A stretch of DNA of 37,416 nucleotides from a virus (IMGVR_UViG_3300029911_000006); one strand, 5' to 3'. Shown: positions 7,222-37,416, counted from the first letter of the stretch. Notes: generated by a model from the sequence alone, not told the origin. Translations and numbers: made by a program.

Positions 7222-8319
7222 ATGAATTTCAAGTCCAAATTCCTCCGCAGAGCCGAGAAACTCCCTCAGATGCACTCATCTGAATTCCGAGGAATACCTA
7301 TCGTACTTGAGTGGCCGAAAGGTAGTGTACGCACCGGTAAGGATAATAACGGCAAGGGATGGAAGAGAACCATGCTTTGTGATTACGGGTTTGTACCTGA
7401 AACTAGGGCCGCTGGGGATGGCGAGGGTCTTGACGTTTACATAGGACCGGACACGGAGTCCGACCATGTGTACGTCGTGGAGCAGCTAGATGACGAGGGG
7501 GAATTTGACGAGTACAAGTGTCTTTTAGGGTTCCCTGACATGGACTCTGCTTTTGAGATGTACCTAGCCCACTACCCCGATGACTGGGAAGATTCCCGAG
7601 TAGGTGAGGTCTTCGAAGTCCCCTTCGACTACGCCTTCGATGCCATTGAAAAAAATCAGGTAGAAAACGAGGGTGAGAACCCCGCACCGAAGACTGCGGC
7701 TGACAAGCGGTACACGCTGCCAGCGTATCTCTATCACGGTACAGTAGGGGCCAAGGTGCAAGACATCCTCGCCAACGGTCTGATGACAGACAAGTCCTCG
7801 TCCCATAACGAATGGGACGGTGGTGCAGTCTACTTGGCTATCGACAAGCACATGACCGGAAACTACCCCGACCACTACGAAGCTGGCGAGAGAGAATCAG
7901 GCAAGGTCACGTTGGCAATCGCAACCAAGTTTCTGAACAAGGCTGACCTCCGCCCTGACGATGCAGACTTCCCGGTTATGTTCGATGAATTGCCGGATGA
8001 GGAGAAGGCTCAGCTTCAAACTATATTTGGTGACGCCTTTGACGACAGTAGCTGGGCGTACTGCGAATGGCCGGTCAGTTTGCACTTGACGGGTCAGGTT
8101 GCTTACCTGCGGGACATCCCGGCTAAGGCTATTAGCGTGGCAGAGGACTACAGAGGGAAAATTTCCAACAACACTGGAATTATCAACTCCCCCAGCCACG
8201 ACCGGTTTGTCCCAGACGAATCCCCAGCCGACGTATTTATCAACAGAGGAAATCCCACCATGACTGCGAAAAGTTCGGGGTTAGCTTATCTGAAAGCTCT
8301 CCAGTCGATGCAGTCATAG
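7222..8319 (+). CDS. Two-module polyvalent protein: inorganic pyrophosphatase plus Tpt1/KptA-like ADP-ribosyltransferase
   Basis: N-module IVLEWPKGSVR...DYGF...DGEGLDVYIG...FDEYKCLLGF. KTAA linker at 7690-7701. C-module YLYHGT...ILANGL...GAVYL...DIPAKAI. Confidence 0.85.
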   Translation: MNFKSKFLRRAEKLPQMHSSEFRGIPIVLEWPKGSVRTGKDNNGKGWKRTMLCDYGFVPETRAAGDGEGLDVYIGPDTESDHVYVVEQLDDEGEFDEYKCLLGFPDMDSAFEMYLAHYPDDWEDSRVGEVFEVPFDYAFDAIEKNQVENEGENPAPKTAADKRYTLPAYLYHGTVGAKVQDILANGLMTDKSSSHNEWDGGAVYLAIDKHMTGNYPDHYEAGERESGKVTLAIATKFLNKADLRPDDADFPVMFDELPDEEKAQLQTIFGDAFDDSSWAYCEWPVSLHLTGQVAYLRDIPAKAISVAEDYRGKISNNTGIINSPSHDRFVPDESPADVFINRGNPTMTAKSSGLAYLKALQSMQS

Positions 8320-8369
8320 AGTTACTCAATTCTTCGGTAGTAACACTTATACGCCGAGGAGCAGGGACA

Positions 8370-8684
8370 ATGCCATCTGACCGTCAGCTTAAAACTTACT
8401 ACAACACTTTCAATCGCAAGTATTTCAACAGTGAGTTGCCTGATGCTAAGGTATGGTGGGAGGCTCTTGGTGGTGCAACCATGGGGGACTGCCTCTACTT
8501 GGAAGATGAGGGTATATGGAGGATCAGGATCAACCCCTTTGTGGGGGGTTGGAGGGCTATATGCAAGTGTACTTTACTTCACGAAATGATTCACATCAAG
8601 ACGGGTGAGGCCCATGGACTCAAGTTCGACCGGGAGCGTCAACGTCTATTGGAGTACCGGGAGATACGGAAATTGGTTATTTAA
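8370..8684 (+). CDS. SprT-like zinc metallopeptidase
   Basis: YFNSELP...IRINP...TLLHEMIH (HExxH)...HG..F; GAGGAG SD upstream. Confidence 0.85.
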   Translation: MPSDRQLKTYYNTFNRKYFNSELPDAKVWWEALGGATMGDCLYLEDEGIWRIRINPFVGGWRAICKCTLLHEMIHIKTGEAHGLKFDRERQRLLEYREIRKLVI

Positions 8685-8690
8685 GCTTAG

Positions 8691-8716
8691 AAGGGGCACC
8701 TATAAGGTGCCCCTTT
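8691..8716. terminator. Bidirectional intrinsic terminator between convergent genes
   Basis: Perfect 11-bp stem AAGGGGCACCT-ATA-AGGTGCCCCTT between the stops at 8684 (+) and 8740 (-). Confidence 0.85.
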
Positions 8717-36201: not shown

Positions 36202-36385
36202 TTTCAATGGCTATGAAGACCAGACCATAGACGCCGACACACTCGCTAAACTAGCCCACATGACCGGTAATGATGGGGCTGTCATCCATAACATCCGCGA
36301 TGGTAAGGGCTCAGGTCAGGCTTCGACCGAGTACATCGTGTTCTCCATGGGACAGGTGGAAGTGCAGAACACCGTTGCTGTATAA
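36200..36385 (+). pseudogene. Out-of-frame C-terminal half of an ART-PolyVal domain
   Basis: The frame starting at 36200 reads NFNGYEDQTIDADTLAKLAHMTGNDGAVIHNIRDGKGSGQASTEYIVFSMGQVEVQNTVAV*, matching the G.DG..I.N....Y.(V/A)F..Q(V/I) end of paralogues. It has no YHG half and no convincing start. Confidence 0.75.
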
Positions 36386-36392
36386 TGGCAAG

Positions 36393-37103
36393 ATGGAATC
36401 TGTAAAAGTATCTCCCAATGACTACGTGTTCGTGTTGACCGGGGCTGGTATCAGCGTCGAGAGTGGGCTCCCAGCGTTTCGCAGCAAGGATGGGACGTGG
36501 AATACAGAGAAGCTTGAGGACGTATGCACACCGGGGGCATGGGAACGAGACCCATGGAAGGTGTGGAACTTCTACTCCTCTCGTCGCCGGGAAGCGGCTC
36601 TGGCTATGCCTAACCCTGCCCACTACGCTTTAGCTGAATTGGAGAAGAAGATGGGCGACCGCTTCTTCCTCTGCACGCAGAACGTGGACGACCTCCACGA
36701 CCGTGCTGGTTCTCAGCGGATGATTCACATGCATGGGGAGTTGGCTAAGGCTCGATGCAGCGATGGGTGCTCCGCCCCAGTAACCGACAAGGTTCTGTAC
36801 GATAGCTTGCAAGATGTGAACCGCTGCCTGTGGTGTGGTGCTCTGCTCCGGCCCCACATTGTGTTCTTCGAGGAGACCCCGCTGGAGTTGAATCGCATCG
36901 ACTCCGAACTGGATAAGGTCACGCTGATGATTGTCATTGGAACATCAGGCACCGTTTTCCCCGCTGCCGGATTCATTCATGAGGCTCGTATGCGTTTGGC
37001 TCGAACGGTTTACATCGGCCCTGAGCCACCCGTCAACCACAAGCTTTACCATGAGTTGATTCTCAAACCTGCAAGCGAGGTTGTGTATGAAGTTTCAGAG
37101 TAA
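36393..37103 (+). CDS. cobB: Sir2/sirtuin NAD+-dependent protein deacylase, class III (CobB-like)
   Basis: TGAGISVESG, PNPAH, TQNVDDLH, HMHG, a Zn-binding Cys set, HIVFFEE and IGTSG..FPAA; YxxR (FYSSRR) as in acidic-acyl-preferring class III enzymes. Start placed at ATG 36393 because the upstream part of the tracked ORF overlaps the ART remnant. Confidence 0.92.
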   Translation: MESVKVSPNDYVFVLTGAGISVESGLPAFRSKDGTWNTEKLEDVCTPGAWERDPWKVWNFYSSRRREAALAMPNPAHYALAELEKKMGDRFFLCTQNVDDLHDRAGSQRMIHMHGELAKARCSDGCSAPVTDKVLYDSLQDVNRCLWCGALLRPHIVFFEETPLELNRIDSELDKVTLMIVIGTSGTVFPAAGFIHEARMRLARTVYIGPEPPVNHKLYHELILKPASEVVYEVSE

Positions 37104-37416
37104 GTTCCTCCAGCCGCGAATCATGTACCACGCCACGGACAAGACGCGAGTTGAAGCCATCTTGCGGGACGGGCTCAAGATAAACAGCGAGGTCAACTTC
37201 ACTGAGGCTGGCACGTGGGCTCACGAGAAGTACGGCTGCAACCCCATCTACCTGAGCATCAAGCCCGACGCATACCACGACGAGACCAGTGTGCTGCTCA
37301 AGGTGAACGTGTCCGGTCTCAAGCTGGCGGGTGACCTGCCGGGTCTCGCCGGAAACCACGGCTTCATGGTCGAACCCGACGCCATGTATCTCGACCCTGA
37401 GTATGGGCACGAGGAC
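37087..37416 (+). CDS. Tpt1/KptA-like ADP-ribosyltransferase domain protein, 3' truncated (not in the ORF track)
   Basis: GAGG SD and ATG 37087 give MKFQSKFLQPRIMYHATDKTRVEAILRDGLK...PIYLS...LLKVNV; the frame stays open to the window end. Confidence 0.85.
   Translation, partial: MKFQSKFLQPRIMYHATDKTRVEAILRDGLKINSEVNFTEAGTWAHEKYGCNPIYLSIKPDAYHDETSVLLKVNVSGLKLAGDLPGLAGNHGFMVEPDAMYLDPEYGHED

Follow-up and report, generated by a model that had tools for sequence, protein, structure and literature searches.

A recurrent junction peptide in the polyvalent proteins of a huge peat-soil phage is a candidate recognition site of its prohead protease

How phages use polyvalent proteins, the multidomain proteins of phages and conjugative elements for which proteolytic processing was predicted, has been unsettled since their description by Iyer, Burroughs, Anand, de Souza and Aravind in 2017 (PMC5512222). 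The question arises directly in a 37,416-nucleotide stretch of the virus IMGVR_UViG_3300029911_000006 (the window, by which we mean the whole stretch of DNA that was analysed), which is part of a 431,749-bp JGI metagenome contig from a huge peat-soil phage of ~430 kb. The window contains six large open reading frames (ORFs) on the + strand, summing to 7769 amino acids (aa), in which each polypeptide brings together multiple unrelated effector domains. Pfam matches include ART-PolyVal (E down to 3.5e-49), InPase (ORF 1, aa 18-126, E 1.7e-34), GNAT, ParB_N, Tpt1/KptA-like, PARP-like, DUF3990 and SprT-like zincin domains, and by these the six ORFs belong to the polyvalent proteins as Iyer et al. 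described them. Their domains are separated by a recurrent junction peptide with the consensus [K or I/V/L/M]-T/x-A-[A/S], most often K-T-A-A/S. From the sequence comparisons set out below, we consider it rather probable that the prohead protease encoded by this phage recognises the peptide and would cut the polyproteins there into single-domain enzymes.

A sequence-only reading of this DNA had listed 16 exact KTA tripeptides in the six ORFs, against a rough chance expectation of about two. Exactly 16 were found, all at the codons that had been claimed (Table 1), where chance would give 2.57 according to composition (Poisson P 1.6e-8) and 4.7 according to a first-order (dipeptide) model (P 3e-5). 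Among all tripeptides KTA ranks third in enrichment, and the only two above it, HGT and YHG, belong to the catalytic signature of the ~13 ART modules in these proteins. The extended forms are likewise in excess in the six ORFs, with KTA[AS] found 11 times (0.4 expected), [IVLM]TA[AS] 11 times (1.1 expected) and K[^T]A[AS] 14 times (5.9 expected). The union of KTA, K-x-A-[AS] and [IVLM]-T-A-[AS], hereafter the wider motif, has 41 sites where 9.6 are expected (P 4e-14), and shuffled sequences never attain the observed counts. No motif class is in excess in the window's 16 other ORFs or in 11 upstream genes. KTA had also been reported as absent from the non-polyvalent ORFs, which is correct (none in the 3992 aa of the 16 ORFs) and carries little weight because only 0.9 would be expected there. 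The further claim of about 30 variant sites stands in part: variants do exist, 25 of them by a regular expression for K-x-A-[AS] and [IVLM]-T-A-[AS], and about seven of the 25 are attributable to chance, with two lying inside domains.

The signal belongs to the protein. The DNA word AAGACNGC occurs 22 times, of which 16 are the in-frame sites and the other six are close to the chance number (about 5). Third codon positions differ among the KTA sites, and a DNA-level signal was therefore rejected. The lysine codon is AAG in 16 of 16 sites, which is not significant because background AAG usage is already 87%. Selection thus acts on the protein and not on the DNA. In a logo of 95 sites, the invariant K-T-A is followed by Ala (46%) or Ser (26%), and the flanks show almost no preference.

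The same peptide recurs in related phages. In a related IMG/VR phage (41% identity), one polyprotein of 2429 aa has nine KTA and another of 4168 aa has 13, and five metagenomic relatives (P0002-P0005 and P0023) have 8-17 each, where about one is expected. Single copies in a transposase and in a ligase of the related phage are in line with chance. Among the 120 best polyvalent homologues, the median z-score for K.A[AS] is -0.1 and only the closest ten or so are enriched; the motif is thus lineage-specific and not general to polyvalent proteins. A megablast search of ORF 4 against GenBank phages gave no match, and looking for the window in IMG/VR by exact words found nothing. The nearest cultured relative is Tunturi_5, an Acidobacteria phage of 309 kb, and its polyvalent protein gp273 contains a single KTA, which also indicates that enrichment of the exact tripeptide is clade-specific. 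Since phages outside the clade contribute most of the local alignments (high-scoring segment pairs, HSPs), individual sites are conserved across them only in patches. The alignment column at the C-terminal edge of ART-PolyVal that reads ITAS here (window 13752 and 21408) reads IR[YF]S in about 50 polyvalent proteins of other lineages, and IRY and IRF are among the most enriched tripeptides in P0007, P0011, P0012 and P0028. I-R-[Y/F]-S may be the junction motif of another lineage, and its occurrence in the same column gives a hint of a lineage-specific junction code.

Some further proteins of the relatives deserve mention. P0033, a 2792-aa polyvalent protein from an ENA contig, contains ten KSA and five KMA tripeptides; we considered the KSA repeats as copies of the same motif and rejected them, since they stand mostly in the context D-I-R-K-S-A-D-R after ART modules and constitute a different recurrent motif that is junction-like. 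Adjoining the large terminase gene of the related phage G001 is a gene (L018:2930-6907, - strand) for a 1325-aa protein with four KTA and, inside this probable polyprotein, an Xre/MbcA/ParS-type antitoxin C-terminal domain; ART toxins are the usual target that such domains neutralise. Another gene of G001, an IMG/VR relative, encodes an 851-aa protein that contains the shoulder and repeat domains of the Major Vault Protein (L014:14649-17204, - strand; Pfam E 4e-23), and has KTA at aa 750 and 846, near the C-terminus.

The sequence-only reading had placed the motif, by eye, at the boundaries between domains, and four separate lines of evidence bear this placement out: Pfam envelopes, a structure model of ORF 2, the starts of ART modules and the ends of local alignments. 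None of the 16 KTA lies inside a Pfam envelope (3.3 for random positions, P 0.022), only two of the 41 wider-motif sites do (8.7 for random positions, P 0.0026), and ten sites fall no more than 16 aa outside an envelope edge, where random positions give 3.2 (P 0.0012). For example, sites in ORF 4 stand 4-16 aa outside envelope edges, and VTAA at aa 404 of ORF 6 is 9 aa past the ART-PolyVal envelope. An AlphaFold (AF2) model of ORF 2 has confident domains at aa 21-180, 191-320, 370-468 and 489-585, and each of its five sites falls in coil or in a stretch of low confidence, with four of them separating confident domains: those at aa 181, 323 and 470 lie in gaps between domains that are coil or have low predicted local distance difference test (pLDDT) scores, the one at aa 8 lies in the low-confidence N-terminus, and the one at aa 612 is in a poorly predicted region and is uninformative.

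Sites are also found ahead of ART modules. In the window, 10 of the 13 ART motifs of the YHG[TS] type have a motif site 9-22 aa upstream. Across the KTA-rich clade, the first ART strand, [YWF]HG, follows within 19 aa at 20 of 98 KTA sites (3.6 for random positions), and seven sites come after a terminal strand of the form Q-[IV]-[KR]-[IV]-[IV], where 0.3 are expected. The ends of HSPs to domain-shuffled relatives heap up at the sites, for example in ORF 2 (aa 181/184 and 328-333), ORF 4 (aa 425-431) and ORF 6 (aa 399-409), and in ORF 3 the relatives' HSPs end or start beside sites at aa 198, 268, 751/753, 976 and 1401-1402. The sites divide the six proteins into pieces of mostly 100-290 aa, which is also the range for the 18 sites of ORF 4; the modules of ORF 2 measure 10, 173, 142, 147, 142 and 211 aa. 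Two matches in ORF 5, VTAA at 28179 and KRAA at 30507, lie inside domains and are probably chance matches. Since some 9-10 of the 41 matches are expected by chance and these two are visibly inside domains, true junction sites number about 30, not the 46 first proposed.

Further evidence comes from the phage's prohead protease, which the sequence-only reading had suggested should be found, so that head-maturation sites could be inspected for the same motif. With the protein annotated as head maturation protease in Tunturi_5 as query, a homology search led to P0212 (L020:10001-10891), whose gene shares a contig with the window and lies at a distance of ~64 kb from it. P0212 is about 60-61% identical to the Tunturi_5 homologue and bears the motif in both termini. 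It matches the PHROG family 'head maturation protease' (E 2.5e-13) and is encoded in a head-morphogenesis module with the gene order sheath, ejection-protein homologue, protease, 734-aa protein, 153-aa protein and major head protein (phrog_2522, E 4.6e-42), which is syntenic with gp326-gp335 of Tunturi_5. In an AlphaFold model built with 72 homologues, a core at aa 43-257 (pLDDT 80-97) carries floppy ends. With VIA-align, the best match of this model is T4 gp21 (5jbl_B; Z 9.3, root-mean-square deviation 3.2, 128 aa), followed by about 30 herpesvirus proteases, the assemblins (Z 5.6-7.5); Foldseek ranked the same proteins at the top, with E-values that are not significant. The model thus has an assemblin-like fold, and judged by it P0212 is a prohead protease of the gp21/assemblin type. 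H105, H115, S163 and H189 are invariant in the family, and the spacing of H105 and S163 is one that we take to be gp21-like.

A six-frame search of Tunturi_5 for the Pfam families Peptidase_S77/S78 gave no match (the S77 search was silent in control genomes too and is uninformative), nor did an S77/S78 search of related IMG/VR fragments. The precomputed Pfam entries of ~120 P0212 homologues are empty, and the family seems to fall outside current Pfam models.

Both ends of this protease carry the junction motif across its family. An N-terminal site, K-x-A-[ASTG], about ten residues ahead of the core, is present in 116 of 120 homologues (KTAS in 63, KTAA in 14, KSAS in 8), and a site in the C-terminal tail, K-x-A-[AST] or [MV]-T-A-S, in 113 of 118 (KAAS in 57, KVAS in 10, MTAS in 7). 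Both are short conserved islands within termini that are otherwise variable, low in pLDDT and disordered, and they belong to the same two motif classes that occur at the polyprotein junctions. T4 gp21 and herpesvirus assemblin both process themselves, and motif copies conserved at both flexible ends are the pattern that autoprocessing predicts; the two terminal sites look like self-cleavage sites.

Two other features of the protease were seen. C173, C176, C187 and H189 form an invariant cluster in the family, probably a zinc-binding insertion, and we know of no such cluster in T4 gp21 or the assemblins. In one sub-lineage, a second Cys/His insertion (G-C-x-D-x-D-H-P-F-C) stands immediately ahead of the N-terminal KTA site. 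The head module also contains three homing-endonuclease genes (L020, 7001-7954, 13990-14667 and 16668-18086).

Other head proteins carry the motif as well. Two matches, KTAG at aa 19 and KLAAS at aa 26, lie in the N-arm of the capsid protein, and the 734-aa scaffold-like protein encoded after the protease (L020:10891-13095) has six K.A[AS] where 2.0 are expected; the tail sheath (1180 aa) has none. When 293 ORFs of Tunturi_5 were scanned without prior selection, the 'DNA ejection protein' gp328 ranked first (10 copies, 1.7 expected) and the post-protease protein gp332 second (6 copies, 1.25 expected). The motif lies in exposed, flexible segments, and it is found again at the enzyme's own termini and in proteins that would be assembled together with it. 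The copies in the 734-aa protein lie mostly at aa 396-700, along with a Cys-rich stretch (C-x-G-K-D-C-K-G-C), and its match to Tunturi_5 gp332 is limited to the middle part; it is possibly a scaffold with an added N-terminal domain.

The neighbourhood of the polyvalent genes suggests that their products enter the virion. Between ORFs 1 and 2 lie genes for a 486-aa protein of unknown type, a 156-aa Mtd_N/tail-fibre-like protein, a 78-aa protein, a 395-aa head-decoration/fibre-like protein and a 332-aa collagen-like tail fibre, which put the polyvalent genes among late genes for structural proteins. The PHROG matches of ORF 1 are to minor head protein and DarB-like families, and in Tunturi_5 the polyvalent genes adjoin those for portal, head-tail connector and minor head protein.

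On the reading that we favour, the polyproteins would be incorporated into the prohead core. The prohead protease would then trim the extensions at both of its own ends, along with the capsid N-arm and the scaffold-like protein, and would also cut the polyproteins in about 30-40 linkers, giving single-domain enzymes that would exit the capsid with the DNA. By analogy with assemblin, whose sites read (V/L/I)-x-A↓S (arrow, scissile bond), the cut would fall after Ala, with Lys or an aliphatic residue at P3, Ala at P1 and Ala/Ser at P1'. In ORF 2, KTAG at aa 8-11 would free a 10-aa N-terminal leader. Cleavage of the polyproteins had been the central proposal of the sequence-only reading; it gains sequence-level support from the protease termini, the capsid N-arm and the scaffold-like and ejection proteins, while its product count of ~50 does not hold and an estimate nearer 30-40 is appropriate. 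We would extend the proposal only tentatively, with rather less than even confidence, to the statement that ~0.86 MDa of six precursors is diced in the capsid, by an assemblin-like protease cutting at A↓S, into ~30-40 enzymes that use NAD or acetyl-CoA, and that the junction peptide is a lineage code which tracks the protease specificity of each phage group.

Several known systems resemble parts of this proposal. In T4, internal proteins and Alt carry a capsid-targeting sequence that gp21 cuts at (L/I)-x-E; this phage packs effectors, an ADP-ribosyltransferase among them, into its head, trims them with the prohead protease and injects them. The 10-residue leader of ORF 2, ending in KTA, is comparable in length with the T4 targeting sequence, and the P0212 model shares the fold of gp21, whereas the T4 substrates are small, single-domain proteins cut once, with another cleavage specificity. 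Herpesvirus assemblin (Peptidase S21) self-cleaves at its ends, and its site specificity fits the [KIVLM]-T-A-[AS] pattern, with an aliphatic P3 (here K or I/V/L/M), Ala at P1 and Ser/Ala at P1'. It differs in that Lys dominates P3 here, in that it has no detectable sequence similarity to P0212, and in that its substrate is scaffold, whereas here effector polyproteins would be cut too. The packaged, trimmed and injected T4 effectors are also discussed in the description of polyvalent proteins (PMC5512222).

The prohead protease of SPN3US and phiKZ (gp245/gp175) cuts head proteins including the capsid protein, abundant ejection proteins and itself at an AXE motif (PMC10052503). As proposed here, an assemblin/gp21-fold protease acts in the prohead on a three-residue motif that can occur in several copies per substrate. 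In those phages, however, the enzyme mostly removes one N-terminal propeptide from single-function proteins, in contrast to ~30-40 inter-domain sites in six polyproteins, and the residue before the cut is Glu, where Ala is presumed here. The SPN3US cuts are proven by mass spectrometry, whereas those proposed here are predicted from sequence. The head of phage P1 contains the anti-defence proteins DarA and DdrB in proteolytically processed form (PMC5512222); they undergo single cuts by an unknown protease, and no common motif has been reported for them. The six ORFs agree with the polyvalent proteins described in 2017 in their set of domains (ART-PolyVal, InPase, GNAT, ParB, zincin MPTase) and in lying among virion genes. 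The likely processors named there were zincin or C-terminal assemblin-like domains and no junction motif was described, whereas here a defined motif ties the junctions to a separate prohead protease. Trimming of packaged effectors by a prohead protease (T4, phiKZ, SPN3US) and processing of polyvalent proteins, as a prediction of 2017, were thus already known; what appears to be new is the direct sequence link between a junction motif and the prohead protease's own termini. We found no description in the literature of such a junction motif or of polyprotein-type dicing by a capsid protease.

Some observations weigh against the proposal. Cleavage at the motif is deduced from sequence patterns, the scissile bond is placed by analogy, and packaging of the polyproteins is deduced from the gene neighbourhood and the PHROG/Pfam family context. 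In P0212, the catalytic Ser and His are candidate residues. Enrichment is only weak (z 1.5-3.2) in the polyvalent proteins of Tunturi_5, though the protease of that phage keeps the motif. The capsid N-arm is nearly invariant along its whole length, so that KTAG there is not singled out as a conserved site. The statistic for HSP starts at sites is not significant (P about 0.1), and the same is true for the HSP statistic restricted to KTA.

The alternative that survives best, although we consider it unlikely, is that the motif is a conserved linker element that remains uncleaved, either a hinge or a docking tag for scaffold, portal or chaperone. The indirect case for cleavage and the position of the motif in flexible segments are compatible with such an element, and a targeting or docking role would equally put the motif in prohead-core proteins, including the protease. 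However, an invariant small residue with Ala or Ser next to it (72% of the 95 logo sites), and with flanks that are nearly free, is typical of protease subsites and unusual for a docking peptide. Tandem doublets within one linker likewise argue for cleavage, and the conserved copies at both disordered ends of the protease fit the autoprocessing known for SPN3US gp245 (PMC10052503).

A second alternative, which we regard as improbable, retains cleavage and assigns it to zincin metallopeptidases in or beside the polyproteins, acting before packaging or after injection. Processing by the MPTase domains of polyvalent proteins was what Iyer et al. (PMC5512222) proposed, and the KTA clade has kept two zincin modules (HEVTH in ORF 3 and the SprT-like module in ORF 5) and a stand-alone SprT-like gene that scores above the Pfam cut-off. 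Processing could be the work of one of these, a further point against the prohead protease in that role. The SprT-like module of ORF 5 has HELCH at aa 925, and the HExxH is kept in the related phage (R1) at aa 107. What zincins leave unexplained is the same motif in the flexible termini of a gp21-fold prohead protease in about 120 phages, as well as the excess of motif copies in scaffold-like and ejection proteins. For the KTA-rich P0002-P0005 and P0023, the precomputed Pfam lists contain no peptidase family, which is weak evidence because the window's own zincins score poorly too. The third alternative, that composition, a DNA-level signal or a duplicated linker cassette produced the enrichment as an artefact, can be discarded with near certainty: sites 14178 and 25902 do precede paralogous GNAT modules with a common downstream SPD[YF]GY, but shuffling does not reproduce the counts, the DNA word shows an excess in frame and nowhere else, the remaining sites have unrelated flanks and the enrichment recurs in independent phages.

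If cleavage by the prohead protease is correct, it would supply a concrete, testable rule for how polyvalent proteins are used, namely as polyproteins matured by the capsid protease. It would also predict which sites are cut by the prohead proteases of huge soil phages, a large family that is uncharacterised, with a specificity resembling that of herpesvirus assemblin and so bearing on the shared ancestry of these enzymes, and roughly 40 effector modules could be delimited and expressed singly. Tunturi_5 is cultured and has the same protease and motif-rich ejection proteins, which makes the idea directly testable; we looked for virion proteomics in the Tunturi paper and found none there.

Table 1. 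Polyvalent ORFs, motif sites and associated genes in the window (for variant sites, the first nucleotide of each is given)
Feature	Position	Strand	Remarks
Polyvalent ORF 1, 365 aa	7222..8319	+	InPase, KTAA, then ART-like module from YHGT
KTAA	7690..7701	+	ORF 1 aa 157, 14 aa ahead of YHGT
Stand-alone SprT-like zincin gene, 104 aa	8370..8684	+	PF10263, E 2.2e-8, 34.3 bits, above cut-off
Virion-type genes between ORFs 1 and 2	8740..13126	-	PHROG matches; Pfam Mtd_N
Polyvalent ORF 2, 825 aa	13212..15689	+	10-aa leader, two ART, two GNAT, C-terminal ART-like
KTAG	13233..13244	+	ORF 2 aa 8-11; low pLDDT in AF2 model
KTAS	14178..14189	+	ORF 2 ART/GNAT junction; ten HSPs to other proteins begin exactly at aa 323
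ORF 2 variant sites	ITAS 13752, KAAS 14619, KSAS 15045	+	
Polyvalent ORF 3, 1442 aa	15682..20010	+	no Pfam match
KTAS	16276..16287	+	ORF 3
KTAA	17410..17421	+	ORF 3; aligned with KTAD in one relative
KTAI	17938..17949	+	ORF 3; doublet with VTAS 17923
ORF 3 variant sites	KRAS 16468, VTAS 17923, KGAS 18607, VTAA 19873	+	
HEVTH zincin motif in ORF 3, aa 1097	18970..18984	+	kept in related phage (R1, aa 1526)
Polyvalent ORF 4, 2485 aa	20136..27593	+	ParB_N, ART-PolyVal, GNAT, Tpt1/KptA-like, GNAT, PARP-like, DUF3990/ART, others
KTAT	20541..20552	+	ORF 4, 13 aa past ParB_N
KTAA	21765..21776	+	ORF 4, 8 aa ahead of GNAT
KTAA	22926..22937	+	ORF 4
KTAK	23328..23339	+	ORF 4; doublet with KLAS 23337
KTAA	25602..25613	+	ORF 4
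KTAS	25902..25913	+	ORF 4, ahead of GNAT module paralogous to that after 14178
KTAS	26337..26348	+	ORF 4; aligned with KIAS and KTGA in relatives
KTAA	27024..27035	+	ORF 4; 9 aa ahead of ART YHGT, 3 aa past Q-V-R-I-V terminal strand
ORF 4 variant sites (1)	ITAS 21408, KEAS 21447, LTAA 22131, VTAA 22569, KLAS 22590	+	
ORF 4 variant sites (2)	KLAS 23337, KMAA 23745, MTAS 24075, KSAA 24849, KEAA 26673	+	
Polyvalent ORF 5, 1792 aa	27621..32999	+	ART-PolyVal, Tpt1-like, SprT-like zincin, GNAT, DUF7002
ORF 5 variant sites	MTAA 27669, KKAA 29601, LTAS 31992, KAAA 32115	+	
SprT-like zincin module in ORF 5, aa 863-970	30207..30530	+	PF10263, E 2.2e-4, below gathering cut-off
KTAN	32598..32609	+	ORF 5, 25 aa ahead of DUF7002
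Polyvalent ORF 6, 860 aa	33619..36201	+	ART, ART-PolyVal, ParB_N, GNAT
KTAS	33832..33843	+	ORF 6, 10 aa ahead of ART YHGT
ORF 6 variant sites	KIAA 34141, VTAA 34828	+	

A few other genes in the window adjoin the polyvalent ORFs. Between ORFs 5 and 6, and overlapping the start of ORF 6, is a 202-aa HNH/endonuclease VII-like ORF (33023-33631, + strand) that looks like a homing-endonuclease insertion, by which one longer polyprotein gene may have been split. An ORF at 37081-37416 (+ strand) extends past the end of the window, and a Sir2-family gene (36270-37103, + strand; Pfam E 1.1e-44) follows the last polyprotein.

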